A stretch of 64,000 nucleotides of DNA from Eledone cirrhosa (Eukaryota): contig OZ024759.1 of NCBI GenBank assembly GCA_964016885.1, positions 3,472,001 through 3,536,000 on the forward strand, written 5' to 3'. This document shows, in pieces, positions 5,782 to 45,290 of this stretch. The notes below the pieces were generated by a model. That model ran no database searches. It was not told where the DNA came from and saw nothing but the letters and a program-made list of their open reading frames with translations. The translations under genes were made by a program, and so were the position numbers. Position 1 is the first letter of the stretch. Each line of letters begins with the position of its first letter.

Positions 5782-5919
5782 CTGTCTGGCAGTTACTTCC
5801 CTTGTAACCAACTGCACATCCTCCACTTGAACATATCCCTGACACTATATTACATTTACTGTTGTCTGCACAGTGGCACATATACTTGCAGTTAGGACCA
5901 AATGAACCAGATGCACACA
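5782..5919 (-). CDS. Exon (138 nt), EGF-like: VCASGSFGPNCKYMCHCADNSKCNIVSGICSSGGCAVGYKGSNCQT
   Basis: Acceptor ttccattgcag and donor gttagt; close paralogue of the preceding exon. Confidence 0.9.
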
Positions 5920-8900
5920 CTGCAATGGAATAAAGCAACAACAACAGAAAACATGAGGATGAAGAAGAAAAAGAGACAATTATACAGACAGATGCACATG
6001 CATAGTGGAGGTGTGTGGCCTAGTGGTAAGGGTGTTGGACTTGCAATCATAATGTCATGGGTTCGATTCCTGGGCTGAGTTGTGCGTTGTATTCTTGAGC
6101 AAAACACTTCATTTCACGCTGCTCCAGTATACTCAGCTGAAAACGAGTATCAGCAATAGCTGGGGTTTTGACCCCACGATGGATTGGCGTCCTGTCCAGG
6201 GAGGAGTCTTGTACTCTCAGTCATTTCACACCATAAAAATGGGATAAGCACCTACTATTGTCTTGACACAATATATTATGTTACAAAAAAAGCTATACTA
6301 CACCACTTACCTGTCTGACAGTTGCTACCTTCATAACCAGCAGCACATCCTCCACTTGAACACACACCTGTCTGTTTGTTACACCTGCTGTTGTCAGCAC
6401 AGGGGCATGTGTTGCCACAGTTTGGTCCAAATTTCCCCTCTGGACATTCTACAATGAAAGATCATGAGAAAACCTCTGCTCTTTTATCTCACTAAACATT
6501 TGTAAAAAAAATGAGGTTCAACTGAGTAAGAATACAAAGGATTAATAGGATTAATCAACCCTTACAATACTAAGGACCTTTGTTAAGTTATGTTCCAAAT
6601 ACCATCTTAACCGTTTTGATACCAAACTGCCAGATGTGGACCTTGTTCTTACAATACTAACAACCTTTGTTAAGTTATGTTCCAAATACCATCTTAACCC
6701 TTTTGATACCAAACTGCCAGATGTGGACCTTGTTCTTACAATACTAACAACCTTTGTTAAGTTATGTTCCAAGCACCATCTGAGACCACTCTTGGCAGGT
6801 CTGTTGGATGTTGGCTTACCTGGGGCTAAACAACATCAACAATACCTACTACAATATGCAATACCACCACCACTACCACTATCACCAGCAGCAGCAGCAC
6901 CACCAACACCACCACCACACCAACAACAACAAAACCAGCATCCTCCTCCTCACCACCACCACAACTACCTCCACTCCACCACCACCATCACCACCTACAC
7001 TCCACTCCCACTATAACCACGACAGCCACCTACACTCCACCAACACCACCACCACCACCACCACCACCATCACCACCACCACCACCATCATCATCATCAC
7101 CATCACCACCACCACCACCACCACCAGTACCACCATCATCATCACCACCACCATCTGGGAGATCCAAAATACTGTTGTGGTCCCATTCCATTACTTCACC
7201 AATCTTGTAGACCCTAAATATTGTAATGGTCACTGTCCTTTCTCTTCCACCAACCTGAGAGACCCTAAATACTGTTGTGGTCCATGTCCCTTCTCTTCCA
7301 CCAATCTGGGAGTCCCTAAATACTGTCATGGTTCCTGTTCCTCCCTCCAGTAATCTTGGAGACCCTAAATACTGTTGTAGTACCTTCCCATTCCTTCCAC
7401 TAATTTTGGAGACCCTAAATATTGCAATGGTTACTGTCCCTTCCTTCCTTCAATCTAGGGGACCCTAAATACTGTTCTGGTCCCTGTTCCTTCTCTTCCA
7501 CCAATCAGTGAGTCCCTAAATACTGTCATGGTTCCTGTCCCTTACTTCTCTTCCACCAATCAGTGAGTCCCTTAATACTGCCGTAGTCCCTGTCTCTTCT
7601 CTTCCACCAATCAGTGAGTCCCTTAATACTGTTGTGGACCCTGTCTCTTCTCTTCCACCAATCAGTGAGTCTCTTAATACTGTTGTGGTCCCTGTCTCTT
7701 CTCTTCCACCAATCAGTGAGTCCCTAAATACTGTCGTGGTCCCTGTCTCTTCTCTTCCACCAATCAGTGAGTCTCTTAATACTGTTGTGGTCCCTGTCTC
7801 TTCTCTTCCACCAATCAGTGAGCCCCTAAATACTGCCGTAGTCCCTGTCTCTTCTCTTCCACCAATCAGTGAGTCCCTTAATACTGTCGTGGTCCCTGTC
7901 TCTTCTCTTCCACCAATCAGTGAGTCCCTTAATACTGTTGTGGTCCCTGTCTCTTCTCTTCCACCAATCAGTGAGTCCCTAAATACTATCATGGTCCCTG
8001 TCTCTTCTCTTCCACCAATCAGTGAGTCTCTTAATATTGTCGTGGTCCCTGTCTCTTCTCTTCCACCAATCAGTGAGTCCCTAAATACTGTTGTGGTCCC
8101 TGTCTCTTCTCTTCCACCAATCAGTGAGTCCCTAAATACTGTTGTGGTCCCTGTCTCTTCTCTTCCACCAATCAGTGAGTCCCTTAATACTGTCGTGGTC
8201 CATGTCTCTTCTCTTCCACCAATCAGTGAGTCCCTTAATACTGTTGTGGTCCCTGTCTCTTCTCTTCCACCAATCAGTGAGTCCCTAAATACTATCATGG
8301 TCCCTGTCTCTTCTCTTCCACCAATCAGTGAGTCCCTAAATACTGTCGTGGTCCCTGTCTCTTCTCTTCCACCAATCAGTGAGTCCCTAAATACTGTCGT
8401 GGTCCCTGTCTCTTCTCTTCCACCAATCAGTGAGTCCCTAAATACTGTCGTGGTCCCTGTCTCTTCCCTCTCTAAAGGGTAAACAGATAAAAACTTACTT
8501 GACTGGCAGCTGTGTCCCCTGTAACCAGGTGAGCACCTTCCATTGATGCAGATACCATTGTCAGAGTAACATTTGCCATTATTCAGACAGTGGCACTTCT
8601 TCACACAGTTGACACCAAACATGCCATGGGCACATCCTGAGAAAACAACTTCAATATGTAATTACTGTATTTCCTGACGCCGAAGACACTTCGTCCTCGA
8701 GGACACACCCTAATTCTGACAACCAAAAATTTTAAAAAAAATAATTGTTTCTACTTTTGGCACAAGGCCAGCAATTATCCCAATGTATTACTGGTACTTT
8801 ATTTTATCGACCCCGTAAGGATGAATGGCAAAGTTAACCTCGGCGGGATTTGAACTCAGACCATAAAGGGACGTAACTCTTTGCTGCAAAGCATGGCGTC

Positions 8901-11900
8901 AGACCGATACTGCCAATCCACCGCTCTTTGAATTTGAAGAAAAATAATTGTTTCTACTATTGGCACAAGGCCAGCAATCACCCAGTACATTACTGGTACT
9001 TTATTTTATCGACTCCGTAAAGATGAAAGGCAAAGTTAACCTTGGCAGGATTTGAACTCAGAATGGCAAGTGCTGTAACTCTATGCGTCAAAGCATGGCG
9101 TCCGACCCTCTACCGATACTGCCAATTCACCGCCCTTTGAAGAAAAATAATAAACAACTTTCGGCCTCCAGGATGCATGGTAGATTTTTGAGACTTATTT
9201 TAGTAAAAGTAGCGTCTTTGACGCCGGGAAATACGGTGAGTTTAATTAATTCAAATTTCAGAGTTGTTATCTTTCATCCTTTGAGTGTATCCCATTTACA
9301 ATAGTAACTCTATAACCCTGCATGTTGTAGAAAGAGCCTAAAATAGTTTGGCATCAAGAAGGGCATCCAGCAGCAAAATAATGCCTCAATACTATATATC
9401 ATCATCATCATTGGATGCGCAATGTCAATGTGCATGAATGAGCAAGCATAGACGAGTTGAGAAAGAAATTGTGTATAATAGGGATAAGCTGTAGTGTGTG
9501 GGAGAGAAGACTGCGTTGGTATAGACATATGATGTGCATGGAGGATGACTGCTGGGTAAAGAAGTGCCAAGAAATCCCAGGAGAAAGAAGATGCAGTAGA
9601 GGAAGACCACGAAAATCATGGACGAAGGTGGTGAGATCTGACCTCAGATTGCTGAAGCTCATGGAGGAGATGACGAAAGACTGTGATGAATGGAGAGATG
9701 CTGTGCTGTATAGGACCCATCCCACCCTTGCAAGCAGGGAAAAGCGGACGTAAAATGATGATGATGATCATCATCATGGTTATCATCATCATCATCATCA
9801 TCATTGTTTAACATCCATCTTCCACACTAGTCTGGATTAGATGGTTTTGTTCCACTTGAGGTGAGATTGGTCTGGAGACTGTGTCTTGCTTGTACAGAAC
9901 TGTCTTTGGTAGGTTTTTTACCCCTGGAGGCCCTTCCTAACACCAACCACATTTACAGTGTACATCTTCTGTTTATTACATAATTCTGTTATACGTATTT
10001 CGAAGATGTCAGAGTGGTTGCATAACTTTCTGACATGTTCTCTTCAGACAAGTTGAAATTTGTGTTCTTTTATTTTGTTTTTGATATGCTACCAAGGAGT
10101 GGGGGTTAGAGTTGTGTTTGCATTCCTGTCCAGTTGTTATATGGTTTGGATGGCTATTCTAGTAGGCAGATATGAAGCAGGAGGTGCTATTGTTGCTGAC
10201 ATACTAGGGATGGTAAGTAGGTTAAGGTATCAAATTACCAGAGGGGTAAGTCATCACCCCACCCCCCGTTCATATATGTTAAAGAATTTGTTCGAATAAT
10301 CTACTTATTTTTTTGTTTATTTGAACTTTGTTTATTTGTTTGAACTACATAGCTATATATCCAGGCTGTGTATTATTAGAGAAGGTGATTCTTGTGTAAC
10401 TATGTAAGGATGCATTAAATGTATAGATTTAGTCATTATGTTCAGCTCTAGGTGGAAGTTAGCATGGAACGTGTTAACTATCTAATCTAAGGAAAGTTTT
10501 AGATATTTTATGCATACAAGTATTAACTCTTTAGCATTTACATTACTCTGTAATGTATTTTCTCTGTAAAGTCTTTACCTCACATAATAATCTCACATAA
10601 TATCAAATCCACAAGATTTTGATATTATTTATTTTGAGAACAATACCTTAACAAAAGTATGAGCAGCCAGTTACGGCTGGTTTGAACAGAAAAAGCACCA
10701 CCTACACTCCACTCCCACTATAACCATGACAGCCACCTCCACTCCACTCCCACTATAACCACGACAGCCACCAACACTCCACTCCCACTATAACCATGAC
10801 AACCACCTACACTCCACCACCACCACTCACCTTTACAAGTGTTATTCACATCAATATATCCATCTTTACATCCAGTCACACATTTGCCAGTCAATTGATC
10901 ACATGTCTTTCTGCAGTTGTTGCACTCTTCTTTACAATTTCTTCCATAGAATCCAGGGAGACATTCTAGAAAGACAAACAATCTTAGTCATTATTTCAAT
11001 CTAGGGCAGTGGATTGGCAGAATCGGTGGAGCATCGAACACCATGCTTTGCGGCATAAAGTTATGGCCCTTTATGATCTGAGTTCCAATCCCGCCGAGGG
11101 TAACTTTGCTTTTCATCCTTACGGGGTCTTGTGCCTATATAAGGAACCATTATTTTAATCAAGGGCGGTGGATTGGCAGTATCGTTAGAGTGTCGAACAC
11201 CATGCTTTGCGGTATTGAGTTACGACCCTTTCCATTCTGAGTTCAAAACCCGCCAAAGTTAGCTTGGCCTTTCATCCTTACGGGGTCGATAAAATAAAGT
11301 ACCAGTCACACAATGGGGTCATTTAAATCGACTTTCCCCCTTCCCTTCAAATTACTGGCCTTGTGCCAACAGTAGAAACAATTATTTCAATCTACACTTT
11401 GACAATGCTGTTTATTTTAACCCTTTAGCATTTACATTACCCTGTATTTACTATTGTATTTTCATGGTAAAGGCTTTACCTCACATAATTATCTCATAAC
11501 ATTTACATTACTCTGTATTTACTATTGTATTTTCATGGTAAAGGCTTTACCTCACATAATATCTCACATAACATTTACATTACTCTGTATTTACTATTGT
11601 ACTTTCATGGTAAAGGCTTTACCTCACATAATTATCTCACATAACATTTACATTACCCTGTATTTACTATTGTATTTTCATGGTAAAGGCTTTACCTCAC
11701 ATAATATCTCACATAACATTTACATTACTCTGTATTTACTATTGTATTTTCATGGTAAAGGCTTTACCTCACATAATTATCTCAAATAACATTTACATTA
11801 CTCTGTATTTACTAATGTATTTTCATGGTAAAGGCTTTACCTCACATAATTATCTCACATAACATTTACCTTACTCTGTATTTACTATTGTATTTTCATG

Positions 11901-14900
11901 GTAAAGGCTTTACCTCACATAATGTTGAATCTACAAGATTTTAATATTATTTATTTTGAGAACAAAACCTTAACATCAGTATGAGTGACCAGTTGCAGCT
12001 GATTTGAACAGAGGTTAGAGATTTCTGGCCGGATATGGCCAGTTTAAATGCTAAAGGGTTAAACTGTTTACATTCCATTATAATTTCATGTAAGAACCTT
12101 TGTTAAGTTACATTCCAAACCACCTGAAACTGCCCCAGGTTCTATGCTACAAAATTGTTTATTCCAAAGCCTTTATATTATCTAAAAATCTTCCATCTAA
12201 TTTCATGTAAGAACCTTTGTTAAGTTACATTCCAAACCACCTGAAACTGCCCTTATTCCACTTTAAGTTTACGGTTCATTTCTTTTTCATTTAGAATTGT
12301 CTCCTGCAAGAACATAGATGAAAATGGATGAAAATGCACAAAAATTCAAACTGGTTATAATCAACAAGTAAAATCTTATTCATTTTTTTTTTTTTGGCAT
12401 GGCATTGGAAAAGCATCACACTGTCTAAAAAAGTCTGTCTTAAACCAGAAGGCTTGTTAGGCCAATGCTTATCTCGGTTTCATGGCATGAAGCAACTTGA
12501 AGTACAAGACACCTTGCTGTGAAGGCACATGTCTTAGTGGTTAGAGCATTGGGCTTGCAATCGAAAGGTTGTGAGTTCAATTCTTGAGCAAGACACTTTA
12601 TTTCACATTGCTCCAGTTTACTCAGCTGTAGAAATGAAATGATAGGACTGGGGTCCCTATCATTAAATTACTCTAGACACCTCCAACGAGATATACCTTG
12701 GAGGAGGCCAGCTAAACCTGCATATGTGTGAGCTGTAACAACAACAACCTCGCTGGACAGGACACCAGTCCATCACAGGGTTAAACCTCCAGCTATTACT
12801 GGTACTCATTTTCAGCTATATAATACAATATATTTTTCGTTAGGCTGGTGCTTATCTCTGTTTCATGGCGTGAAGCGACTGGGAGTACAAGATTCCCCCC
12901 TGGACAGGACACCAGTCCATCACAGGGTTAAACTTCCAGCTATTACTGGTACTCATTTTCAGCTGAGTATACTGGAGCAATGTGAAGTGAAGTGTTTTGC
13001 TCAAGAACACAACATGTAACCCAGCCCAGGAATTGAACCCATGACATTATGATTCTAAGTCCAACACCCTTACCACTAGGCAATGCACCAAACTGTGCAA
13101 CTCCTAAATATTTTTGTATCTCCTCGTGTTTGTGTTTTTGTAGTTTTTATGTCAAATGAATTCAGAGCATAATCGACATGTGATGATTTCAACTAAAACC
13201 TGTTTCCCTATAAATATGAAACACCCTAATATATATGTATATATGTTAAAGGTATATTATAAAGAGAAAGGACCTGCTGGCTGAGCTCTTGCTCTTTATA
13301 AAATAGCCATGCTCTACTACCGCGGGCTTTGTGTTGTGTTCTTGAGCAAGACACTTTATTTCACGTTGCTCCAGTTCACTCAGCTGTGGAAATAGGTTGC
13401 GATGTCACTGGTGCCAAGCTGTATCGGCCATTGCCTTTCCCTTGGACAATATCAGTGGCATAGAGAGGGGAGGCTGTTATGCATGGGCTACTGCTGGTCT
13501 TCCACAAAACAACCTTGCCCAGACTTGTGCCTTGGAGGGGAACTTTCTAGACTCAAATTCTATGGTCATTCGTGACCGAAGGATCTCTTTACCTTTTACC
13601 CTTACTAACCCATGTATCGAATACTCTGTTCAGTAATGGTCTAACTAGTTTTAAACTGGTTCTATCCTGATTTATGTTAAAGGTATAAAGGTATCTATAT
13701 ACTTATGAAAGACCTCCACTTCACACATGCTAAGGCTAGGTCCTGACAGCAGAATTATTGTGATTTTGTTGCCCTTAACAGGACTAGAACATTGCACATC
13801 AATAACTTTTGTCTTCTCTAGATTGGAAATCTTCTCACATATTCTGTGTTTTTTGTCTTTTGATACCAACACTATTATTGAGAATTTATTTTGTGCTGCA
13901 GAAAAACATGGTAAGAAAGTTAAAACAAAAAACAAATAGCAATGGTATTTGGTGGTGATGGTGGTGAGGAGGAGGGAGATTTGGGTGAAGTTTAGTCAAA
14001 AACTGATTGGCAAACATGGGCTTGGACCAGTGCAAGATTTAGGGCACATGAAGCCCTGTGCTAGTTATGTTATGAGGCCTCTTACTCGTAAAAAATTCAT
14101 CATAAAAAATTGTGCCAAATTTAGAATTAACCCTTTAGCATTTAAACCGGTTGTATTCGGCCAGAATTTTCTCAACTCTTTCTATTCAAACTGGCTGTAA
14201 CTGGACACTCATACTTATATTAAGGTATTGTTCTCAAAATAAATAACATCAAAATCTCATAGATTCGATATTATGTGAGATAATTATGAGGGCGGTGGAT
14301 TGGCAGTATCGGTAGAGGGTCGGACGCCATGCTTTGCTGCATAGAGTTACGGCCCTTTATGATTTGAGTTCAATCCTGCCGATGTTAACTTTGCATTTCA
14401 TCCTTATGGGGTTGATAAAATAAAGTACCAGTCACTCACTGGGGTTGATTTAATCGACGTTCCCCCTACCCCAAAATTGCTGGCCTTGTGCCTATATAAA
14501 AAACCATTATGTGAGATAATTATGAGGTAAAGCCTTTACTGTGACAATACAATAGTATATATAGAGTAATGTAAATGTTGTGTGAGATATTATGTGAGGT
14601 AAAGCCTTTACTGTGACAATACAATAGTATATATAGAGTAATGTAAATGTTATGTGAGGTATTATGTGAGGTAAAGCCTTTACTGTGACAATACAATAGT
14701 ATATATAGAGTAAAGTAAATGTTATGTGAGATATTATGTGAGGTAAAGCCTCTACTGTGACAATACAATAGTATATATAGAGTAATGTAAATGTTATGTG
14801 AGGTATTATGTGAGGTAAAGCCTTTACTGTGACAATACAATAGTATATATAGAGTAATGTAAATGTTATGTGAGATATTATGTGAGGTAAAGCCTTTACT

Positions 14901-17900
14901 GTGACAATACAATAGTATATATAGAGTAATGTAAATGTTATGTGAGATATTATGTGAGGTAAAGCCTCTACTGTGACAATACAATAGTATATATAGAGTA
15001 ATGTAAATGTTATGTGAGATATTATGTGAGGTAAAGCCTCTACTGTGACAATACAATAGTATATATAGAGTAATGTAAATGTTATGTGAGGTATTATGTG
15101 AGGTAAAGCCTTTACTGTGACAATACAATAGTATATATAGAGTAATGTAAATGTTATGTGAGATATTATGTGAGGTAAAGCCTTTACTGTGACAATACAA
15201 TAGTATATATAGAGTAATGTAAATGTTATGTGAGATATTATGTGAGGTAAAGCCTCTACTGTGACAATACAATAGTATATATAGAGTAATGTAAATGTTA
15301 TGTGAGGTATTATGTGAGGTAAAGCCTTTACTGTGACAATACAATAGTATATATAGAGTAATCTAAATGTTATGTGAGGTATTATGTGAGGTAAAGCCTT
15401 TACTGTGACAATACAATAGTATATATAGAGTAATCTAAATGTTATGTGAGGTATTATGTGAGGTAAAGCCTTTACTGTGACAATACAATAGTATATATAG
15501 AGTAATCTAAATGTTATGTGAGGTATTATGTGAGGTAAAGCCTCTACTGTGACAATACAATAGTATATATAGAGTAATGTAAATGTTATGTGAGATATTA
15601 TGTGAGGTAAAGCCTTTACTGTGAAAATACAATAGTATATATAGAGTAATGTAAATGTTATGTGAGATATTATGTGAGGTAAAGCCTTTACTGTGACAAT
15701 ACAATAGTATATATAGAGTAATGTAAATGTTATGTGAGGTATTATGTGAGGTAAAGCCTTTACTGTGACAATACAATAGTATATATAGAGTAATCTAAAT
15801 GTTATGTGAGGTATTATGTGAGGTAAAGCCTTTACTGTGAAAATACAATAGTATATATAGAGTGGTTTCTTTATTTGCCACTAGGGCACAAAAGGTAGGG
15901 ACAGATACAAGGGGGGAAGTTTACATATAATTAACGAGTACAAAAATATAACAATGAAATAACAACAACAAACGAAGTCCTCAATAGGGAGGGGGCATTA
16001 ACATGGGTCGCACACACCCCGGAAAAAATGTGCAACCCTTCTCCTCAGGAGCACAAAGAGTAGGTGCTTCCCTCGTCTCCTCTTTTTCCTGTTCTTTCAC
16101 CTACAGGCTGATATAGAGAGAAGACCCATTCACTCTGGCCATTCTCCCTACTTTCACCCACCTTTCATAAAACTTGCTGGGGTAGAGCACCTCTCTCTCC
16201 ATTCTGATCCTTCTTTTAAAATGGTATTTGAAAAAGAGGACCAGTTGTTGGCCGGAGAGAAAGGTGTCTGACCTCAGCCCTTTCAGCCTCGTCCACCATA
16301 CAACTTCTTTAGCCATGGCTATCACACAGAGAAAAACCGCCTCTCCTTCGTTTTTGAAAGGGGGAGGCGCTTTGATCGTGACAATGGACTCGGTGGTCAA
16401 CCGGATTGGTTCCACCCTCAACAGTAGTCGTTCCACATAGCCCCACAGGTCAGCAATGCCTGGGCAGTGTACGAATGCGTGCGCAACGGTTTCGTCATCA
16501 TGCACGCATCTCGGACAGATCTTATTCAAAGGATCTCTACCTAGGCTCCCATGCCTGTGGAGCTTGTCTCGAACGGGTAGAGCCCCTCGGTAGCACTGCC
16601 AAGCCAGGGACTTTTGGAAGTTGTCCATCGGTCCAGGGCCAAACGTCCTACCGAACAGACTGGCCAGTTCATCTTCCTCTATGCCTAGAGCTTCTCCGAG
16701 AGCATCGTCGCACCTGCTGCGTACCAACCCTCTATAGAATGTCGAGGTGGAGTCTCCACTGATTGCCGGGTCCGCTTTCCAGAGGGCCGTGAGCGCCTGG
16801 GCACATTCAATGTGCCAGTCGCCCACTTTTCTCGGTCTTTGCTTGACCCAGGATTGCAGCTCGGTGAGCGAGACGAGTCTGGGAAAGGCTCGCCTCACAA
16901 ACGGGGCCCACACCGGTTGACCGGTGAGGAATACCTGGAGGTGCCGTAGCCTTAATGCGTATTTACGCATCTGTAGCCACGGCATCCCCAGCCCTCCTTT
17001 CGAAGGGTGTTGACAGCAGATGGATCTCCTCACCAAAGGGGTCCGCTTGTTCCAAAGAAATTGGAACAGCGCGCACTCCATTTTGGCGAGTCTTTTCACT
17101 GGGCAAGGCACGACGGTCAAGCGGTAGTAGATGACGGATGCTATATAAGTATTCGCCACCTCCGCTCGACCTTTCAGGGATAGTTTGCACTGGGCCCACT
17201 TCTGGGTGAGTGCAAACAGCCTGGCCGTTACCTCGTTCCAGTTTTTCTCCACCTGGAGGTCTGGTCCGAACCAGACCCCAAGCAGCTTCACCGGGCCCTC
17301 CGTCCAGCGTCCGAGGACGTCGTTGGAGGGCATCGGTTTGCCTCTCCATGTTCCGAGTTGCAAACCGACGGACTTGTCCCGGTTCAGCTTGGCTCCTGTA
17401 AACCTTTCATATTCCTCCAGTAAGGTGCCGATCTCACCGATTTGCGAGGTTTTCGACACCATTACTGTCACGTCATCGGCGTAGGCCGACGCCGCTTTCT
17501 GCAATCCCGGTTCCAAAGGGATGCCCTGCAACCGCTCCAACTTCCGCAGTAGTGGCTCAAGAGCCAGCACATACAGTAGGGAGGAGAGAGGGTATCCCTG
17601 TTGGATGGATCGCATGATTTGGAATGGCTCCGAGAGGTGGCCGTTCACCTTGACCCTTGAGCAGACGTTGCTGCTGTGCATCGCAGCAATCCAACCCCTG
17701 AAAACGGGTCCGAAGCCTGCCGCCGCGAGCACCGCATCCAGGTAACGATGGTCAACCCTATCGAAAGCTTTAGATTGATCCAAGTTGATCAGGGCCCCAC
17801 CCCAAAGCCGGTTTCATTCCCTACCCTCTCTATGATGTATCGCATAAGGTGGAGATTGTCGTGAATGGACCTGGACGGGATTGTGCATGTCTGCGCTTCT

Positions 17901-20900
17901 CCCACCAGGTTTCCAACGACAAGCGCCAACCTCTTCGCTAACACCTTGGCCAAAATCTTTAACTCTGTATTTAGCAGAGTTATGGGCCTGAAGTTATTTA
18001 TGTCATCCCCCTTGTTCTCATCCTTCCTCACCAGCGTAACTACGCCCTTGGTCACAGAACTGGGAATTCTCCCGTTCTGCTGCCAGTTGCAGTAGACAGC
18101 TTCGAAGATATCGGAGAACAAGTCCGGCATCGCTACATATAGCTCGTATGGTAGACCATCGAGACCCGGGGATTTGCGTTTGCTGCATTGGCTCAGCGCC
18201 GCCCCTATCTCAGCAGCTGAAATCGTCCTTTCGCAGGACTTCGCCTCCGCGTCCGAGAGGCGCGGCAGACCGTCGAGGTATGGATTGAAATCCATAGTCT
18301 CACCCGGCGCGCCGCCCCTCTCGAACAGTCATGCAAAGTGCCACTGAAAGGCCGCACACATCTGCCCAGGTTCAAGGATCACACGCCCATCCTGGTCCTT
18401 CAAAGACCGAATCGTGGACTTGTTACCACTTTTTGCCTCTGTCACTCGGGCCCAGCTCACAGCTTTGGCTCCCTCATTACCCAGAGCACGTATTTTACTC
18501 CTGACAACGCAGCCTTCATGCTTCACCTCAAAGAACTGGTCTAAGGCCATTCTTGATGCCAGCACGCCGGCTACATTGCCACTCCTAATCGCCTCATCTA
18601 CTCTATCTACTAATTCCCTTTCCGTCTTGTTCCTATCCCTTGCTAATTCCTGACTAAAACCTATCGATTCTATTCTAATTGCTCTCTTAAGAGAGATTTA
18701 CCACCTGTTGTTGACAATTGCCCCTGTCAAACTCTGCTTAACTAACGTGCTAATCCGTTTACTGTAAGCTTTGCTTCTCGGTAAGGACAAGTTCAGCTTC
18801 CAGTAACCGGGTCCCTGTCTATGGGTTCTATCAAGGTTGGCTATGCAGGTCACTAACTTGTGATCCGAATAGTCAACCATGAACATTTTTGGACAGCTAA
18901 ATGTGTCCCTATCCTTCTCTCTAACTAGGACCCTATCTAGGTACGACCTAGATGTTCCACTGCGATTGGTCCACGTCCATAGTGGTACAGTCGGAAAATC
19001 TAGTCGATATCTATCGGCCAGGTCAAATCGGCCGATTAACCTTTTGAGGCTTTTACACCCCCCTCTATTGGCACATGCCCCTACATAGTCCCAACGTGCA
19101 TCCAGGATACCATTCCAGTCCCCCACTAAAAGCAAGGAGCGGGACGTTCCCAGAAAAGTTTCCAGACGTTGGAAGTATTCCGGCCGCGCTGCCCAAAAAG
19201 GGGCGTACACAGCTATTAGTCTAAGGGCTCCACTTTCACTACTGCCGACGTCTAAAACCACCAGTCGACCCTCCGGGTCCAGGTGCACCTTCTGTATGGC
19301 GAGGCCCAGGTGTTTTCGCAGCAGAACAACAACTCCACCCCCACCCCCCCCCACCCGGTTGACAGAGAGATGCGAAGATCTCAAAGTCGTCGAAGAGGGG
19401 CGCCAGTTGGTGCTCGCTGCTGATCCTGGACTCGCAAATAGCCATTACATCCATTCTATGCGACCTGAGATCGTTTAAAAGTTTGCCTTGTTTCCAAGAC
19501 AGTCCCAGGCCGCGTACATTCAGACACCCAACTCTTATATCAGCCATGTTGGTTAAAAGAGGAAGGACCTACCTGTTCGGCTCCTGAGGAGCAGGTTGCA
19601 CAATATCCATGGGCGTATTGGAGGGGTTGTTTGGTGGGGTGTTGTTCTGTGGTGGAGTGGGGGTGTTTGGTGAGGTGTGGGTGGGGAAACGTTTCAAGAG
19701 GACGCGGTTATAGGGTCGAGTACATGTTTTCCCCACGTCCTCAGGAAAGTTCTCTCTTAGTTTTGCATAGGTGTCCATTGGGAGTCTTATCATTTTTAAA
19801 TGCGGTTTGTTGGCCGCGCTTGCAAAGAATTGCCCTTCAGTTTCCACCGAAGGGTCTTTGTGTATTGTTTTTACTAGTTCTTTGTTATTTGTGTTAATGT
19901 ATGTATACTGTTTTATTTGTGTTGTGTTTGTTTGTTGTTCTTGTGTGTGCTTACGTTTTGTTGTATGTGTTATGTTTTGGGGTGGGGCGGATTTTGTTTG
20001 TTCTGTTTGTTTTGTTTTTGTTGGTGGTTGTGTGTTTGTTTCGTTTATGTTCGAGTGGTGCTTTCTTTTTTTCCTTTTTACAGGTTGGAAGGGTTCCTCT
20101 TCTTCGTCACTAGGTGCCGTTTCAGCTGGGTCCTCGTCCGTGTTGTCGGGTAGTGGTGTATTTTGGGGTTTTGTTGTATTTGTGTGTGTTTTGGGAGTTG
20201 TTTTGGGTGGGGCCGTGTCTTGTGTTATTTTTCCGTGTTGTTTTTGTTGTTGTTGTGGTGGTGGCGGTGGTGGTGTGTGGGGTGTAGGCAAAAGAGCCTT
20301 TTTTTTGTCAATTGAGGACAAGCAGCCCTTAGATGACCCCTGCTTGAACAGTAGTAACATATGGGCCTCCTACCCTCGGCTGAAATGTATATAAATGTTT
20401 CTCCATCGAGGGACACCCTCTGTGGTATTCTAGCTATTCGTTCTGATCTCATTTGGACCAGAACCTCCACGCTCAAACCGCCGAAAACGTCTGTGGTGAC
20501 TTCTCCTACTGAGAGGATTCCGTCCTCGTCTTCTAAAAATCCTGTTAGTACCCAGGAAATGCATGCATTTGGCCGGATTCCGGAGACCCTTATCTTCTGC
20601 GTTCTTTTCCCTAAATATGTGGGGAAAAATGTATGTAGCTTGGAAACAATTGGCGCCACAGAGTATTTCCTGGCCGTCAATTGATCCTTCATTAGGACCG
20701 TTATATTCCCATAGAGTGGCCCTTTTTGTATGAACGATATATCACTCCACACATTTTTTAGGACCAGCTCAATCTCTTTTTGGGATAATTGAGCTGGTTT
20801 CCTTGTTATGTTGGAAATTGTTCTGAAAGATATCGTTCTTAGCGTCGTGTCTCTTTTGATTTCTTGTGGGGAGGTGATTGTGAAGTCTCCTCCTTCTTTG

Positions 20901-23900
20901 AAAGTTACATACTGTTTCGCTTCCTTCATCTTTTCTCTCAGAGTTGTAATGTCCAGTTGCTTGCAGGTTTGTGTTTTCCGGACCGCCTGTGCAAAGGAGG
21001 CACCAGTAGTGGGTTCGCTTTGTTTGGTGTTATCGTTATTTTTTCCTTGGTTGGTGTTGTGACTATTGCTGTTATTGTCGTTGTTGTTTTTGTCTGCGTT
21101 TATGTGACTTTCTGGGTTTTCACCCATTTTTACAAATTTTTCTTTTAATTCCGTGTTCCATGTTTCTTTTGCAGAAGTGAGGAGGGAAGACTTAGAGCCT
21201 TGTGGTTCTAGCTTCTCTGTATCACCTTTCTTAGGGGGCGTGGCTTTCACGTTAGGATGAGATGTGAAAATTCCGTCCATTTCTATTAGTTTGCACACGT
21301 CAACACACGTCTCTCGTATACGAGATGTTATGTGAGATAAAGCCTTTACTGTGAAAATACAATAGTATATATAGAGTAATGTAAATGTTATGTGAGATAT
21401 TATGTGAGGTAAAGCCTTTACTGTGACAATACAATAGTATATATAGAGTAATGTAAATGTTACGTGAGATATTATGTGAGGTAAAGCCTTTACCACAAAA
21501 ATACAATAGTATATATAGAGTAATGTAAATGTTATGTGAGATATTATGTGAGGTAAAGCCTTTACTGTGAAAATACAATAGTATATATAGAGTAATGTAA
21601 ATGTTATGTGAGATATTATGTGAGGTAAAGCCTCTACTGTGAAAATACAATAGTATATAAAGAGTAATGTAAATGTTATGTGAGATATTATGTGAAGTAA
21701 AGCCTTTACTGTGACAATACAATAGTATATATAGAGTAATGTAAATGTTATGTGAGGTATCATGTGAGGAAAAGCCTCTACTGTGACAATACAATAGTAT
21801 ATATAGAGTCATGTAAATGTTATGTGAGATATTATGTGAGGTAATGCCTTTACCACAAAAATACAATAATATATATAGAGTAATGTAAATGTTGTATGAG
21901 GCATTATGTGAGGTAAAGCCTTTACTGTGAAAATACAATAGTATATATAGAGTCATGTAAATGTTATGTGAGATATTATGTGAGGTAAAGCCTTTACTAC
22001 AAAAATACAATAGTATATATAGAGTAATGTAAATGTTACGTGAGATATTACGTGAGGTAAAGCCTTTACTGTGAAAATACAATAGTATATATAGAGTCAT
22101 GTAAATGTTATATGAGGTATTATGTGAGGTAAAGCCTCTACTGTGAAAATACAATAGTATATATAGAGTCATGTAAATGTTATATGAGGTATTATGTGAG
22201 GTAAAGCCTCTACTGTGACAATACAATAGTATATATAGAATAATGTAAATGTTATGTGAGGTATTATTTGAGGTAAAGCCTTTACTGTGACAATACAATA
22301 GTATATATAGAGTAATGTAAATGTTATGTGAGATATTATGTGAGGTAAAGCCTTTACTGTGACAATACAATAGTATATATAGAGTAATGTAAATGTTATG
22401 TGAGATATTATGTGAGGTAAAGCCTTTACTGTGAAAATACAATAGTATATATAGAGTAATGTAAATGCTAAAGAGTTAAAACATAACTTAACAAATGTTC
22501 TTACATAAAGTTAGGATAGAAGGTTTTAAGATAGTTATAAACATTTTATCATAAACTAAGATGCGTGGCTCTGTGTTTAGAGTATTCGCCTCACAATCGT
22601 AAGGTCATGAGTTTGTTTACCAGCGGAGTGTTGTGTCCTTGAGCAAGACACTTTATTTCATATTGTTCCAGTTCACTCAGCTGGCAAAAATGAGTTGTAC
22701 CTGTAATTCAAAGGGTCAGCCTTGTCACACTCTGTGACATGCTGAATCTCCCCGAGAGCTATGTTAACCCTTTAGCATTTAAACTGGCCATATCCGGCCA
22801 GAATTCTCTCACCTCTTTCTGTTCAAACCAGCCATAACTGGCTGCTCATACTTATGTGAAGGTATTGTTCTCAAAATATATAATATCAAAATCTCATAGA
22901 TTTGATATTATGTGAGATAATTATGTAAGATAAAGCCTTTACCACAAAAATGTAATATTAGATATGGAGTAATGTAAATGCTAAAGGGCTAAGGGTATGC
23001 ATGTCTGTGGAATACTAAGCCACTTGCACGTTAATTTCATGAGCAGGCTGTTCCAGTAATAGTGTCAACTGGAACACTCATTGTTGTAACCGACAGTGCC
23101 AGTTCAAGTTCAAGGGGTAGAGTTGATTCAGACAGTTTGGTATCCAAACAGTTAAACAATTAGGAACATGTGTGTTTCATGCCATTTATAAATAAATGTC
23201 TTTAGGTGACATTCTAGAACAGAAGTTCTCAAACTTTTTGGGGCCATCGCCCCCCACAGGGCCTTGTAATACCCTCTAAAACGCCACACCTATTTCCAGA
23301 GAGACCTACCTACAAGCAAATTGTAAATAATATAAAAAAAAGGAACGATGGACTTTCGTCAAATCGGACCGAGGAAACAATGTTTCCGTTGGTCTTTCCA
23401 ATTGCTAATACTATCTATCGGTCGCAACTCCAGGTAGAAGGAGCAACGTGAAATAAAGTAAATAATATATAATACATAAAATGGTTGATATATAATAAAT
23501 AATTCTTTCTACTTTTGGCACAAGGCCAGCAATTACTCCAGTATATTACTGGTACTGTATTTTATCGACCAAGTAAAGGTGAAAGCAAAATTAACCTAGG
23601 AGGGATTTAAAGTCAGATCATAAGGGGCCGTAACTCTATGCTGCAAAGCATGGTGTCCTACCTTCTATAATATATCGACAGTCGATCAACTTCCATCAAA
23701 TTGGACCACGGAATCAATGCTTCCATTGGTCTTTCCAATTGCTTGGCAGTTCTTTACCCAGCTGTCATCCACCATGCGCATCACATGTCCATACCAACAC
23801 AGTCTTCTCTCCCACACACTACAACTTATCCCTCTTATACACAGTTTCTCTCTCAACTCGTCTATACTTTGTCGTTCACATACATTGACATCACACATGC

Positions 23901-26483
23901 AACAGCATATACTTGCTTCATTTCTATCCACTATATAATATATACTATGTATCAATAAATATCATATACTTTTTTATTTTACTATATTTATATATAAAAT
24001 TTATCATTTGATATTTGATATACTATTATATCCTCTCCACCCCCATCCTTAAGCCCCAGCACCCCTCTTGGGGCAGTAGCACCCACTTTGAGAACCTCTG
24101 TTCTAGAGGGAAGTGAAATTGTAAAGTGTAACAGGCAAGAAGACAACATTTTTCCAAACAAACAAAAAAACCAACTTACTATCAATATAGTTATAATATA
24201 TCCTTAGTTGGGAAATATCGTATGTTTGTCTGAGTTCAAGAGTCCACAATGATCTTGGAGAGCTCATTGTATGAGAACAAGATCTGTGTTGTGGGTTTTG
24301 ATCGAAGTTACCATCTTCAGCCAGGTTAGCTGACATTGAGTACATTTCATTGCGACAAACATTGTTTTTCATTAGAATTACACTGCTTGTTTTGTCTGTC
24401 GTGGTTTGTGTAGCTACTTTACCAATAGCTATATTTCCTGAAAAAGAATGAAAGAAAATTTAATGAAAGTCAATTACTATGAAATGAAATGGATCTCAGT
24501 CAGTTGAAACGATGATTGATCCAGTGGGAAAAGACAAATTGTTTTCTATATACTAAACTTTTGAAATATCTTTTACGTTATCTCTAAATTATTCCATATT
24601 TCCAGTAGAGGCATGTGGCCTAGTGTTAAGTGTGTTGGACTTACCATCATAATGTCATGGGTTCGATTTCTGGGGTGGGTTGTGTGTTGTGTTCTTGAGC
24701 AAAACACTTCATTTCACGTTGCTCCAGTATACTCTGCTGAAAATGAGCACCAACAATAGCTGTGGAGGGTGTAACCCTGCAATGGACTGATGTCCTGTCC
24801 AGGAGGAAGTCTTGTACTCACAGTCGCTTTATGCCATGAAACCAGGATAAGCATTGGCCTAATGAGCCTTCAGGCTTGAGACAGTATAGTCCTATACGAA
24901 CGAGACACGGTCACCCGACCAATCTTGCCTCAATTGGGACAACTCCCGACTAACCCATGCTAGCATGGAAGATAGATGTAAACGATGATGATGATGATGA
25001 TATAGCAACCTCAGCCTCAACAGTGACAGCAACAACAACGGCATGATAATTAGAAATCTACTTACTATAGGTTTTTACTTGGCAATCCGGTCCGGTCCAT
25101 CCTTCTTCACAGCCATATGGGCAAGCCCCAGTTTGTTGATGGCAGTCAGCATCGTTTAAACAATGGCATTGCTTGTTACAAGTATATCCATACCATTGAG
25201 ATGCACAACCTATGTTAAAAGTTAGAATTTATCACACTGATGGACTACATTTCCACAGTTCTCTCTCATCTACAGTTAATTGTTTCTACTATTTGGCACA
25301 AGGTACCAGTAATACACAGGGGTAATTGCTGAATTACCTCAGTGCATTACTGGTGCTTTATTTTATTGACCCCCCCCCCCCCCATAAGAATGAAAGGCAA
25401 ACCTTGGCGGGTTTGAAAGCAAAACGTAAAGGGCCATAACTCTATGCTGCAAAGCATGGTGTCTGACACTCTACGGATTACTGCCAATCCAATAATAATA
25501 ATTGTTTCTACTTTTGGCACAAGGCCAGTCAGCAATTACCTCCAGTGCATTACTGGTACTTTATTTTATCGACCTCCGTAAGAATGAAAGGCAAAGCTAA
25601 CTTCAGCAGGATTTGAACTCAGAACGTAAAGGGCCATAATTCTATGCTGCAAAACATGGTGTCTGATGCTCTACGGATTACTGCCAGTCCAATCCAGCAA
25701 TTACCCCAGTGCATTACTGGTACTTTATTTTATCGACCCCTGTAAGGATGAAAGGCAAAGTTAACCTCGGCGGGATTTGAACTCAGAACATAAAGGGCCG
25801 TAAACATGATGTCTGACACTCTACCGATTACTGCCAGTCTCACATAATTATCTCACCTAATATTATGGTCTGAGTTCAAATCCCGTCGAGGATAACTTTG
25901 CCATTCATCCTTACGGGGGTCGATAAAATAAAGTACCAGTAATACACTGGGGTAATTGCTGGCCTTGTGCCCCCAAAAGTAGAAACATAATATTGAATAT
26001 ATTAGATTTTGATATTATCTATTTTGAGAACATTATCTTAACATTAATAAGGGCGGTGGGTTGGCAGTATCGGTGGAGGGTCGGACGCCATGCTTTCCAG
26101 CATAGAGTTACGGCCCTTTACGATCTGAGTAATGCACTGGGTAATTGCTGGCCTTGTGCCTAAAGTAGAAACAATTATCTTAACATGAATATGAACGGCT
26201 GGTTACAGCCAGTTTGAACAGAAAGAGGTGAGAGAATTCTGGCCAGATACAGTCGCTTTAAATGCTAAAGGGTTAACAGTCACAGTTTGTAGAGATTAAC
26301 AACTAAAGTTTGAATGAATAAAGATCAACAGACCTGATAATGATAATGTTTCGATACAGGTACCCTCTCCTTTTATAGAAATAGACCAAGCGTTTACATC
26401 CCCTGAACAGCTCAAAGGTCTGGTTGTACATATTGATGTACAAAAGGGTTCCTTATTTTTGCCAAAAAATACTGAAACTGTCT
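5782..26483 (-). CDS. Multi-exon MEGF-like / EGF-repeat + F-type lectin extracellular protein (partial model, 8 exons; 5' and 3' ends not identified)
   Basis: Exons 26334-26483, 25066-25209, 24180-24437, 13707-13895, 10831-10965, 8499-8636, 6311-6448 and 5782-5919 are all multiples of 3 and phase 1-1. All have AG acceptors, and all but one have GT donors. Joined, they give one stop-free frame with 8-Cys laminin-type EGF repeats (CxxGxF/YGxxC...CHC...CxxGW/YxGxxCQ) and an F-lectin fold signature. Confidence 0.85.
6008..6250 (+). mobile_element. tRNA-derived CORE-type SINE (other copies approx. 3060-3200 -, 12522-12660 +, 12845-13088 -, 13330-13595 +, 22562-23095 +, 24608-24880 +, 37483-37670 +, 60640-60860 +)
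   Basis: A-box tggcctagtggt and B-box ggttcgattcc, followed by CORE-like ttgtgt(t/c)cttgagcaa(g/a)acactt and gctccagt..actcagctg. Confidence 0.75.
6311..6448 (-). CDS. Exon (138 nt), EGF-like: KCPEGKFGPNCGNTCPCADNSRCNKQTGVCSSGGCAAGYEGSNCQT
   Basis: Acceptor ttcattgtag and donor gtaagt. Confidence 0.9.
6557..6780. repeat. 87-bp tandem repeat, ~2.6 copies
   Basis: gatgtggacc recurs at 6633 and 6720; the unit contains ttaacccttttgatacc. Confidence 0.85.
6830..7155. repeat. Low-complexity (CAC/CAA/CAT)n tract
   Basis: Trinucleotide runs seen directly. Confidence 0.9.
7150..8468. repeat. 51-bp minisatellite (~19 homogeneous units plus ~6 degenerate units on the left)
   Basis: Unit gtggtccctgtctcttctcttccaccaatcagtgagtccctaaatactgtc; 17-aa periodicity in the ORF track. 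Confidence 0.95.
8499..8636 (-). CDS. Exon (138 nt), EGF-like: GCAHGMFGVNCVKKCHCLNNGKCYSDNGICINGRCSPGYRGHSCQS
   Basis: Acceptor ttttctcag and donor gtaagt; EGF Cys pattern. Confidence 0.9.
8663..9237. mobile_element. Tc1/pogo-like MITE carrying two nested SINE copies (related shorter copy at ~43732-43869)
   Basis: Imperfect TIRs tactgtatttcctgacgccgaagac / gtctttgacgccgggaaatacggt; the internal cttcggcctccagga..atggtagat is shared with the copy near 43790. Confidence 0.6.
9310..9800 (+). mobile_element. 3' fragment of RTE LINE with (ATG)n tail
   Basis: ORF 9457-9753 reads RRLRWYRHMMCM...RGRPRKSW...DCDEWR, then ggacgtaaaatgatgatg. Confidence 0.8.
9986..10051 (-). ncRNA. Type I hammerhead ribozyme (family 2)
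   Basis: Reverse complement reads ttgt-CTGAAGA-gaacatgtcaga...tctgacatcttc-GAAA-tacgta-TA-acag, with an 11/12-bp stem II, a palindromic minimal stem III and an AUA triplet. Confidence 0.8.
10831..10965 (-). CDS. Exon (135 nt), EGF-like: CLPGFYGRNCKEECNNCRKTCDQLTGKCVTGCKDGYIDVNNTCK
   Basis: Acceptor gtctttctag and donor gtgagt; EGF Cys pattern. Confidence 0.9.
11162..11385 (+). mobile_element. tRNA-derived SINE family A (other copies approx. 8742-8925 -, 8945-9135 -, 11003-11150 +, 23500-23665 -, 25275-25840 - x3, 25868-26178 +, 61650-61825 +, 62308-62495 -)
   Basis: Head ggcggtggattggcagtatcg (A-box), gagttcaaatccc (B-box), central gcctttcatccttacggggtcgataaaataaagtacca, tail ggccttgtgcc..agtagaaacaatt. 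Confidence 0.8.
11421..12058. mobile_element. TTAA-flanked piggyBac-like MITE with an internal ~72-bp array (~7 units)
   Basis: ttaa|CCCTTTAGCATTTA ... TAAATGCTAAAGGG|ttaa. Confidence 0.85.
13707..13895 (-). CDS. Exon (189 nt), C-terminal half of F-type lectin domain: QNKFSIIVLV...HRICEK...VQCSSPVKGNKITI...LSMCEVEVF; non-canonical AT donor
   Basis: Acceptor tttttctgcag and the typical LSxCEVEV terminal strand. The frame-preserving exon end is followed by ataagt instead of gtaagt. Confidence 0.8.
14291..14505 (+). mobile_element. SINE family A insertion with a 21-bp TSD
   Basis: attatgtgagataattatgag is duplicated at 14270-14290 and 14506-14526. Confidence 0.85.
14508..15863. repeat. 72-bp tandem array, left part (~19 units)
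   Basis: Unit gttatgtgagatattatgtgaggtaaagcctttactgtgacaatacaatagtatatatagagtaatgtaaat; ggtaaagcc at 14526 and 14598. Confidence 0.95.
16101..19547 (-). pseudogene. Tx1-like ORF2 (APE endonuclease + reverse transcriptase + C-terminal zinc-binding region), disrupted
   Basis: Motifs LNVRGL, GDWN, YLDRV, SDH, KSPGLDG, FRPITLLN, KAFDRV, QGYPLS, AYADD and CPRC..ETVAHAFVHC. Frameshifts near 19345 and 17790; stops at 18698 and 18329. Confidence 0.9.
19569..21280 (-). pseudogene. Tx1-like ORF1 (gag-like), frameshifted at the T-run near 20300
   Basis: MDGIFTSHP...SFAQAV...RRPICYYCSSRGHLRAAC (zinc knuckle), continuing in another frame as a Pro/Thr/Gln-rich tail. Confidence 0.8.
21326..22465. repeat. 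72-bp tandem array, right part (~16 units, more variable)
   Basis: Same unit as 14508-15863, running into the MITE right TIR. Confidence 0.95.
22768..22988. mobile_element. Monomeric piggyBac-like MITE (~221 bp) inserted in a CORE-SINE; further copies at ~4231-4444, 42470-42676 and 42681-42938
   Basis: ttaa|CCCTTTAGCATTTAAAC...GTAAATGCTAAAGGG|ctaa; the 42.5-kb pair is head-to-tail and shares one TTAA. Confidence 0.85.
23220..24100. mobile_element. hAT (Charlie-type) MITE with nested SINE and RTE fragments
   Basis: Termini CAGAAGTTCTCAAA / TTTGAGAACCTCTG and an 8-bp TSD TTCTAGAA/TTCTAGAG. Confidence 0.75.
24180..24437 (-). CDS. Exon (258 nt), N-terminal half of F-type lectin domain: NIAIGKVATQ...ANLAEDGNFDQNPQHRSCSHT...LWTLEL...ISQLRIYYN
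   Basis: Acceptor ctttttcag and donor gtaagt. Motifs N(I/V)AxGKxAxQ, AxDGN, SC(S/T)HT and WxxEL match fucolectin/FTP domains. Confidence 0.88.
25066..25209 (-). CDS. Exon (144 nt), EGF-like: GCASQWYGYTCNKQCHCLNDADCHQQTGACPYGCEEGWTGPDCQVKTY
   Basis: Acceptor ttttaacatag and donor gtaagt; Cys spacing of a laminin-type EGF repeat. Not in the ORF track. Confidence 0.9.
26334..26483 (-). CDS. Exon (150 nt): TVSVFFGKNKEPFCTSICTTRPLSCSGDVNAWSISIKGEGTCIETLSLS
   Basis: Pyrimidine-rich acceptor cttctcatttcag and a weaker donor G|gtctgt. Phase 1-1; joins in frame to the next exon as ...SLSGCASQWYG. Confidence 0.6.
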
Positions 26484-32452: not shown

Positions 32453-33210
32453 ACTTCCTTATATGGGAAGATTGTAGCTGTCAAGAGGATTGGTCAAAAA
32501 TTCCTGGTAAACACAATTAAGTCTATCATGGCAGTGGGTGGGAGGTGGGGATGGCTGAACTTGCCTGTAGAGCAAAGAGGGAGTGGGTGGAGCCGGTCAA
32601 GCGTTGAAAGTGAAATCTAAACAGCAAATTCTAAGGATTGTGTAAGAAAGTAGGCCAACTTTCATACTTTCCACCATAGCGATTAAACTGCATACCCTGC
32701 TTTCCAGGTTACCCTTTGCCACTGATATATATATATTTATATATTGAGTACTCTGGTGCATTATGGTCCTTCTGGTTCCTTACCACACCTCCTTTGTTAT
32801 ATATATACAACGGCGGCGAAGATTGGAAACCGAATCTGAGCTTTCCCACCTCTGGGACAAGCCATGGTAAGTTGTTTACGCTCAAGAGACTAACCCCCTG
32901 GGGGATGCTAAACACAGGTCAGAGGTGTTTAAGCCTGACAGAAAATAGGTCAGAGGATATATCCATCTTTCTGAGTTGTTTACGCTTGGCAAACTAATCC
33001 CTTGGGAGACTCTAACCAAAGTTCAGAGGATATATCTATCCTTCTAACTTCAACTCTTATAAATACAGGGGTTGTTTACGCCCCGACAGAAAAGAAGTGA
33101 TATACAGACAAGACAAGTGGCCTTTACAAGCTCTCGTCACGAAATACCAGTCCGTCACTAATTTCCTCTCCTGCCTGGCTGATCGATACAACCACATATT
33201 CCGTTACAAC

Positions 33211-33221
33211 TGGTGACCCCG
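33211..33221 (+). promoter_or_regulatory. Primer-binding site, tRNA-Trp type
   Basis: TGGTGACCCCG lies 2 nt after the LTR end and matches the start of the known tRNA-Trp PBS TGGTGACCCCGACGTGAT. Confidence 0.75.
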
Positions 33222-33296
33222 TAAAACAGACACACAACTTCTGATCATCCACTACAAACGATGTCTCTAGCACACGACGATTCATCTACGGCAGAA

Positions 33297-35795: not shown

Positions 35796-37119
35796 CGTTC
35801 ATAGAACAGGAATTGCCACCAGTACCCACCGTTTCTCCAGACTCACCAACAACTTTGCCCGACACAAACACGGCAAATATTGCACACCAAATCCGGAAGA
35901 ACAGTCCGATGGCCCACGCCATGGGATACGTACAAGTTTATCGGGTAAGTACAAATTATGCATCTGGTCGACATTTCGGCTAATTTGTACATTTCAACGA
36001 ATCGGCCAATTTCTGTGGTCATGAACTACACACAAATCAATTAACTCTGTGCATCACCCACATCAAAAGAACAGACAAAAGAACATTTTTCTGTTTCTAT
36101 GAAATGAACAAACTTTTAATCAACAAACTTTTCGTACGAACATTTTCAATATTATGTAACATCACAGTACATTTTCCTGAATGTAAATTTCTTTTGCTTT
36201 GCATGTTTTCTTCCATGTCTCCTGTTTGTAAATGACTTTCATGTGTTTTTTTATTTTTACTGATTTTCTTCAACAACACACCTAGTCATACCTATCTTCA
36301 TTTCACATGCACCTAGATCGTTCAATCTTAACTTGTTTACGCTCAAGAGACTAACCCCTTGGGAGAGGCTAAACGCAGGTCAGAGGTGTTTACGCCTGAC
36401 AGAAAATAGGTCAGAGGATATATCCATCTTTATGACTTGTTTACGCTTGGCAAACTAATCCTTGGGAGACTAACCAAAGTTTAGACGATATATCTATCCT
36501 TCTAAATTCTACTCTTATAAAGACAGGGATTGTTTACGCCAAAAACAGAAAACAAGTGGGATACAGACAAGACAAGACGTTTTACAAGCTCTCGTCACGA
36601 AAAACCAGTCTATCACTTATTCTCACCTTCCTGGCTGATCGCTGACTCCTGCAATACAAATAAGTAAATATACTGATACGCCGCACACACGCATTCATAG
36701 TGAGTCCAGCATTTGTACACGTATCATTCATTTCTGTTTACACGTATTATAATCGTATTCTGTGATATTTGAATTTACGTGGCTCGAAGAGCCACCAAAT
36801 TATTGTATGAATATTTTGTGTCAATTATTTTATCATTCAATATTCAAATTGAATATTGTTGTAATAAAATAAACTTTGTAACAACACTCCTGGTATTTTT
36901 CTTTACACCGAAACCACCATACCAACAGTTACATCCATCCATCCACTTGTCGTTACAACCACACATAATATTCCGTTACACCTCCGTCTATATTTCAACC
37001 ACTGGAACAACCTCACACAAGAAACAGTTGTCGCACCCTCAGTCAACATTTTAATGTCAAACATCGAAATAAATGTTATGAGTGTATATAGATAGATGTA
37101 TATTGTGTGTGTATATATA

Positions 37120-44614: not shown

Positions 44615-45290
44615 AGAGAAGAGAAGCCATATCACTGTGATATCTGTGATAAATCATTCTCTCAAAGTGGTACCTTAACTACTCACAAACGTATACATAC
44701 AGGAGACAAGCCATATCACTGTGATATCTGTGGTATATCATTCTCTGGGAAAAGTAGCCTAACTACTCACAAATGTATACATCATCATCATCATCATCAT
44801 TTTACGTCCGCTTTTCCCTGCTTGCAGAAGAGAAATCATAATGCATTGACATCAGTGATAAATCCTTCTCTCAAATTTGTGAATTAATGAGAATACAAAT
44901 ACATATCATTGTAACATCTTAGGGAAATCCTTCTCTTTGAATGTTACATTAACTATACACACACATATACATACAGCTGGGAAGCCATATCACTTTGATA
45001 TATTTGGTACATCATTCTCTAAATGTTGTGGCTTCACTAGACACCAACATCTACAGGAGAGGAACCATATCACTGTGATGTCTGTGATAAATCCTTCTCT
45101 AAATGTTGTGGTTTCACTAGACACCAACATATACATACAGGAGAGGAACCATATCACTGTGATGTCTGTGATAAATCCTTCTCTAAATGTTGTGGTTTAA
45201 TTAGACACTAACATATACAGGAGAGGAACTATATCACTGTGATGTCTGTGGTACATCTTTCTCTTATAAAGATTACTTAATGCAACACAA
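44615..45290 (+). pseudogene. C2H2 zinc-finger array pseudogene
   Basis: [54 protein letters not shown], then a (CAT)n antisense retroelement tail and further frameshifted ccatatcactgtgat fingers. Confidence 0.85.

Follow-up and report, generated by a model that had tools for sequence, protein, structure and literature searches.

The A at position 13706 of the window, a 64,000-nucleotide stretch of Eledone cirrhosa DNA, stands where the donor site of a lectin exon on the minus strand should have the G of a CpG. Comparison of the copies of this exon across the genome makes it very probable that a genomic G>A change at this CpG disabled the donor in a partial duplicate, probably without function, of a lectin-EGF receptor gene, and that the changed form spread to 11 of 24 copies. 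A preliminary description of the window had left the choice between a loss-of-function mutation or assembly error and a donor created by A-to-I editing. The loss-of-function branch stands, as a CpG change in a partial duplicate. Assembly error is very unlikely, since A is found in 11 of 24 copies on three contigs, and the editing switch finds no support, since the outer exons are missing from the window copy and a locus with a GT donor exists on contig C22.

The gene fragment in the window consists of eight minus-strand exons, all of them phase 1-1. In the order of transcription these are X1 (26334–26483, 150 nt), the second half of a degenerate domain and the most upstream exon found in the window copy; the EGF-like exon E0 (25066–25209, 144 nt); exons A (24180–24437, 258 nt) and B (13707–13895, 189 nt), corresponding to the N- and C-terminal halves of an F-type-lectin-like domain; and the EGF-like exons C (10831–10965, 135 nt), D (8499–8636), E (6311–6448) and F (5782–5919), the last three being 138 nt each and F being the last exon found in this copy. 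No exons downstream of F were found in C20:3282001–3472000. The window copy remains similar to the adjacent unit up to about C20:3383568. Because a 200-N gap lies near 3364000, truncation of the copy and a break in the assembly would look the same at this end.

The assignment of exons A and B to a lectin-like domain comes from several comparisons. Exon A matches solved F-type lectins in the PDB (FBP32, E 1.2e-6; 2j22, E 9e-6; 1k12, E 2.6e-4), and exon B is recognised by an HMM derived from homologous proteins (E 1e-5). Against Pfam PF22633 exon A scored below the cut-off, and a word-index protein search with exon A gave no match among 26 candidates. The nearest named relatives that match exon A over its full length are Octopus proteins annotated as ‘fucolectin-5’, ‘protein draper’ and RPTP-like models, at 37–44% identity. 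The cation motif of F-type lectins is given as h2DGx in the available text of PMC5712786; the C22 copy conforms to it (AVDGN) and the window copy (AEDGN) does not. The valine codon (AVDG) is present in 23 of 27 copies of exon A; in one of these 23 the motif has in addition lost 3 nt. Neither copy has the complete fucose motif HX24RXDX4(R/K): the histidine is present (SCSHT), and IYYNYID stands where homologues have IYNR. The predicted domain of both the window and the C22 locus is therefore best described as a lectin-like fold.

The minus-strand sequence across the end of exon B is GAG GTC TTT C|ATAAGTAT, in which 13707 is the C and the mutant donor ATAAGT occupies 13706–13701. As the preliminary description stated, this is the frame-critical phase-1 donor that joins exon B (13895–13707) to exon C from 10965; the join is in frame, C+AA giving Gln followed by Cys. 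Its further statements that read-through past 13707 yields HKYIDTFIPLT and then a stop, and that skipping of exon B (24180 to 10965) is in frame, were borne out, and so was the exclusion of a U12 site: there is no ATATCCT, the paralogues have GTAAGT and the acceptor is AG. The description of the site as a U2 donor perfect except at +1 applies on the intron side; on the exon side the sequence is TTC instead of MAG, and the whole site matches the donor consensus at 5 of 9 letters, or 6 of 9 with G in place of the A. The nearby GTs had been declared unusable, which is true of all but one. Of the 30 GTs listed from 13895 to 13450, a weak one at 13784 (CTA|GTCCTG, 3/9 consensus), 78 nt upstream of 13706, permits an in-frame, stop-free join, and its use would delete 26 residues of the lectin domain. 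The likeness of the site at 13706 to a donor is not a matter of chance: GTAAGT is found there in 13 of 24 paralogous copies, which marks it as the true donor.

Exon B has 24 matches at 99–100% identity in the 3.0-Gb genome: 14 on C20, 100–220 kb apart, five on C27, three on C16 (a contig of 810,597 bases, possibly a duplicate of other regions) and one each on C22 and C23. Exons A and C have 27 and 24 matches, respectively. Four exon A copies have no exon B in the 20 kb downstream and one exon B copy has no exon A upstream; copies missing an exon were omitted from the 24-copy counts for that exon. The exact donor pattern occurs at 22 sites, divided equally between A and G (11 each), while the two remaining exon B copies read T|GTAAGT, which creates a TAA at the junction. 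Across the junction, 11 copies thus have C|G, 11 have C|A and two have T|G, so that 13 of the 24 have a GT donor and 11 have AT. The EGF exons are ordered C-D-E-F in copies of the window class and C-E-F-D at C22, C23 and one C16 copy; the remaining copies show C-D, a search of the retrieved DNA at 85% identity having detected neither E nor F. Among the best 40 of 135 candidates, an internal EGF exon has at least 34 matches at 97% identity or more. One internal EGF exon is also copied on C19, C26 and C18.

The 11 AT copies, which lie on three contigs, share the linked variants 13908T and 13858A. In a tree constructed with the two focal bases masked they form two groups, of four and seven, and no single clade, the tree being unrooted. 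This distribution may be explained by one origin of the A followed by conversion or unequal crossing-over between the two sub-families, or by two origins.

The junction CpG was hit on both strands, because C|A copies and their mirror image, T|G copies, both occur. Such changes are frequent in this region as a whole: across 1,948 aligned columns around the site, again with the two focal bases masked, transitions were found at 12 of 48 CpG positions versus 23 of 705 other G/C positions (odds ratio 9.9, p 3e-7). The comparison supports the reading of the A at 13706 as a G>A change at a CpG within a partial segmental duplicate.

The C22 copy differs from the others in extending on both sides. Upstream exons lie at C22:1663978 and 1666600, about 50 EGF exons follow up to 1785146, and a transmembrane exon with one predicted helix lies at C22:1788775. 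The gene spans C22:1663978–1788847, from a lectin-like head to the one transmembrane exon; its EGF exons are 138 nt long, arranged in tandem and in many cases nearly identical. The exons at 1663978, 1666600 and 1785146 (the last EGF exon) are each single in the genome (1 match of 1 candidate). The portion of a query that covers the transmembrane exon likewise matches C22 alone, the other 41 matches covering the first ~70–80 letters of the query, which are flanking repeat. Our audit of this locus found AG..GT borders, eight cysteines and no stop in 51 of 53 detected EGF-type exons, and its exon B donor is GTAAGT. The start exon has a weak candidate only, at C22:1640136. The cytoplasmic tail was not found in the C22 DNA searched. 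We infer that C22 is the parent of the copies. Because the copy that keeps the outer exons has a normal donor, the A at 13706 is most likely a commonplace mutation in a duplicate that is decaying.

The C20 unit matches C22 from 1669018 to 1744818 only, an internal stretch of roughly 76 kb. Since similarity is limited to this stretch and the outer exons are single-copy on C22, the window contains an inner part of the gene, for which neither a start exon nor a membrane anchor is known. It is an intron-containing copy of part of another locus, as expected of a duplicated pseudogene fragment. At the 5′ breakpoint (33180–33190) similarity to C22 ends at 33185, corresponding to C22:1669018, near the end of an LTR of a plus-strand Gypsy-type retrotransposon remnant (32800–36650, ends approximate). 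This element has matches to reverse transcriptase, RNase H and integrase, its LTR segments are 90–93% alike, and its left LTR contains the breakpoint. The breakpoint is common to the four units examined (the window, the top C20 unit, one on C27 and one on C16), and the adjacent C20 unit, a fifth, is 99.9% identical to the window across it; three upstream stretches on C23 gave no long match. Each array unit consists of the internal C22 segment and a spacer of ~50–60 kb with transposon and zinc-finger remnants. Units of ~100–220 kb are repeated 14 times head to tail on C20 (3.39–5.30 Mb) and occur also on C27, C16, C23 and C19. The copies differ from C22 by 1.5–2.0% and neighbouring window-class units from one another by less than 0.1%; therefore the amplification is recent. 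The zinc-finger remnants of the window spacer are of the C2H2 type (44444–45264, plus strand), and C2H2 remnants are found also in the C27 and C16 units examined.

Many of the copies are damaged elsewhere. Among the 12 GT copies other than C22, four have nonsense changes, six lose an EGF cysteine and two are clean in the sampled exons. In the AT group of 11, exon C contains a stop in one copy, the DG motif is short by 3 nt in one, and the cation motif shows a V>E change in four, the window included. In the four window-class copies the sampled exons (E0, A, B, C, D, E and F) are open and their splice sites are normal apart from the 13706 donor. Taken across the copies, the AT donor, five distinct nonsense changes and the losses of cysteines and motifs are disabling changes of the kind by which pseudogene fragments are recognised. 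The 33 distinct coding changes comprise nine synonymous, 19 missense and five nonsense changes, the expectation under no selection being 23%, 72% and 5%. The synonymous share (9/33 versus 23%) gives p 0.54 and a ratio of ~0.8, at low power and with some changes possibly belonging to the C22 branch; the spectrum would fit neutrality, with little power to say more.

Molluscs are known to have receptors of this general architecture. In the available text of PMC13712769 and PMC12297450, Biomphalaria has single-pass receptors that combine MEGF and galactose-binding or fucolectin domains (‘Scavenger class F-like’ subgroups 1B and 1C; the MEGF/GBD RPTPs of SudRes1), with recent paralogous duplication. 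As far as the receptors are described there, the C22 locus resembles 1B and 1C in its EGF repeats, fucolectin-like domain and single transmembrane helix. It differs from the mollusc receptors in having about 50 EGF exons, and no PTP exons were found in the DNA retrieved up to C22:1839000 (one of the searches being strict). The window copy is unlike the mollusc receptors in having neither a start nor a membrane exon. The window gene is likely to be a pseudogenic fragment of this known mollusc lectin-EGF receptor family.

The phenomenon itself belongs to a familiar class. Duplicated (unprocessed) pseudogene fragments in segmental duplications, and splice mutations that arise by CpG deamination, are general concepts. 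The copies resemble such fragments in having kept their introns, in their 98–99.9% identity to one another, in their common breakpoints and missing outer exons, in their stops and splice lesions and in the strong mutability of their CpGs. They differ in scale alone: the ~76-kb segment is present in about two dozen copies, of which 14 follow one another head to tail across 1.8 Mb. We propose that an internal segment of the C22 locus became linked, probably by way of an LTR, to a spacer unrelated to it, and that the joined segment was amplified head to tail, giving 14 units on C20 and more on C27, C16 and C23. The resulting copies, having no start exon or membrane anchor, would have been free of selection. 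Deamination of methyl-CpG on either strand would then have produced the A and T forms at the junction, and further duplication would have carried the A form into 11 of the 24 copies. A counterpoint to this proposal is that this is a high share and that the A occurs in two sub-families; amplification alone can give such a share. Further counterpoints are the open frames of the window-class copies and the fact that the exons are all phase 1-1 in units that stand head to tail, so that a read-through transcript could in principle be spliced in frame. The copies are presumably silent.

If the duplicates were instead transcribed from a captured or read-through promoter, the AT copies could skip exon B, retain the intron and end in HKYIDTFIPLT, or use the GT at 13784, and the resulting truncated lectin or EGF-only products might have some role. 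We consider this unlikely. The symmetry of the exons, which makes skipping of exon B in frame, would allow it, and two different changes at the junction CpG both end the protein directly after the lectin domain. The Octopus vulgaris paralogue models P0054 and P0152, which are predictions, join the equivalent of exon A to an EGF exon and are a further point in its favour. Weighing against these points, the unit has no start or signal-peptide exon, the upstream exons being single-copy on C22; other copies carry unrelated stops before, within and after the lectin domain; the cation motif is lost in the window class; and the LTR at the breakpoint is in the opposite orientation. In P0054 and P0152, which have no exon B equivalent, IYNRMKS passes straight into QCVPG, either by real skipping or through a gap in the annotation.

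Restoration of a GU-like donor by ADAR, which would convert the A to inosine in the pre-mRNA in a restorative, harm-permitting manner, appears very improbable. The genome does carry an A at +1 of a donor that the frame needs, as at an editing-created 5′ splice site, and this in an animal group that edits heavily, in which respects the site resembles both editing-created donors and coleoid restorative editing. There are precedents: the available text of PMC8582992 reports AU-to-IU donor creation in Alu exonisation, and that of PMC6881472, for which an author correction exists, describes restorative editing of G-to-A changes at coleoid coding sites. G>A is, moreover, the direction that editing can reverse, and Octopus proteins are the closest relatives that carry a name. 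However, the known cases lie in expressed genes, and the Alu ones in repeat-derived double-stranded RNA, whereas here no partner strand stood out in the window and there is no complete frame. Because the window copy is without the upstream and transmembrane exons, editing would have no full-length product to restore, and an unedited GT is available at C22 and in 12 other copies. G>A is also the expected mutation at a CpG, and the mirror change C>T, which is not editable, is present as well.

The pairing analysis points the same way, if weakly. The donor region 13640–13780 has no perfect inverted match longer than 11 nt anywhere in the window, though imperfect or remoter partners may exist, and at −30.9 kcal/mol the best duplex found within 4 kb falls within the range of the controls (−22.9 to −34.2 for six other donors and −18.3 to −37.8 for eight exon B controls). 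The pairing probability is between 0.05 and 0.43, depending on the size of the folded stretch. The context of the A, C-A-U, is not one favoured by ADAR, which counts against editing at 13706. Neighbour preferences are seen in squid editing, according to the available text of PMC4384741, and in the accessible part of PMC4528330 nothing was found on editing-made donors. If editing did act here, it would mean that a splice donor is kept alive by editing in an invertebrate array; we found no case of an editing-maintained donor in an invertebrate array or in octopus duplicates among the papers listed by our literature searches, which is weak evidence of absence.

A more elaborate form of the editing idea would have the array read as giant or chimeric transcripts in which each of the 11 AT units would have its whole lectin domain spliced to the EGF stalk, or not, according to whether its A is edited. 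We rate this reading as highly improbable.

The major spliceosome might also use the AT site directly and weakly, without editing, as an AT-AG intron. In human reporters, as described in the available text of PMC6280755, non-canonical donors rank GC > TT > AT, with AT third, and intron positions +2 to +8 (TAAGTAT) are here as in those reporters. The reporters, however, carried CAG at the exon end, where the window has TTC, and depended on splicing enhancers, and a transcribed copy would still be required. Direct use of the AT is extremely doubtful.

That the A is an error of assembly or base-calling, or that one gene is simply heterozygous for a SNP, can be dismissed almost outright, since the A is present, together with 13908T and 13858A, in 11 copies placed separately on three contigs. 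The preliminary description had taken a C at 13706 on the plus strand in raw reads as a sign of such an error or SNP, and C is indeed what the contigs of 4 of 4 runs show (two samples, one study), with no T contig among those listed. This C has another meaning, as the GT paralogues, which are collapsed in the run contigs, explain it; such contigs drop variants, and their C is no proof that the A is absent from those animals. The depth of the run contigs, near 800 versus 4–14 for the other listed contigs, fits a multi-copy stretch, although it is not a copy number. The run contigs differ at 13858 between runs of one sample, and one X4 contig starts exactly at 13707.

As a splice mutation in a decaying duplicate, the change at 13706 matters little in itself. 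It does carry a caution for studies of cephalopod editing, as A and G copies at 99% identity, divided half each way, would mimic a site with ~50% ‘editing’ whenever reads are aligned to a single copy. Of mild interest, too, is the amplified lectin-EGF segment, since related receptors map to snail parasite-resistance regions.

The window also contains several repeats. A LINE-like element (16104–21808, minus strand) with a zinc-knuckle ORF and pieces of an endonuclease and a reverse transcriptase lies inside the intron between exons A and B, where it is flanked by 72-bp tandem-repeat arrays (14507–15863 and 21322–22467). A long simple satellite of 8 kb occupies 51790–60094, and satellites of ~46–76 kb lie in the intron after exon F (C20:3390000–3466000 and 3586000–3632000), with lengths that vary between adjacent units.
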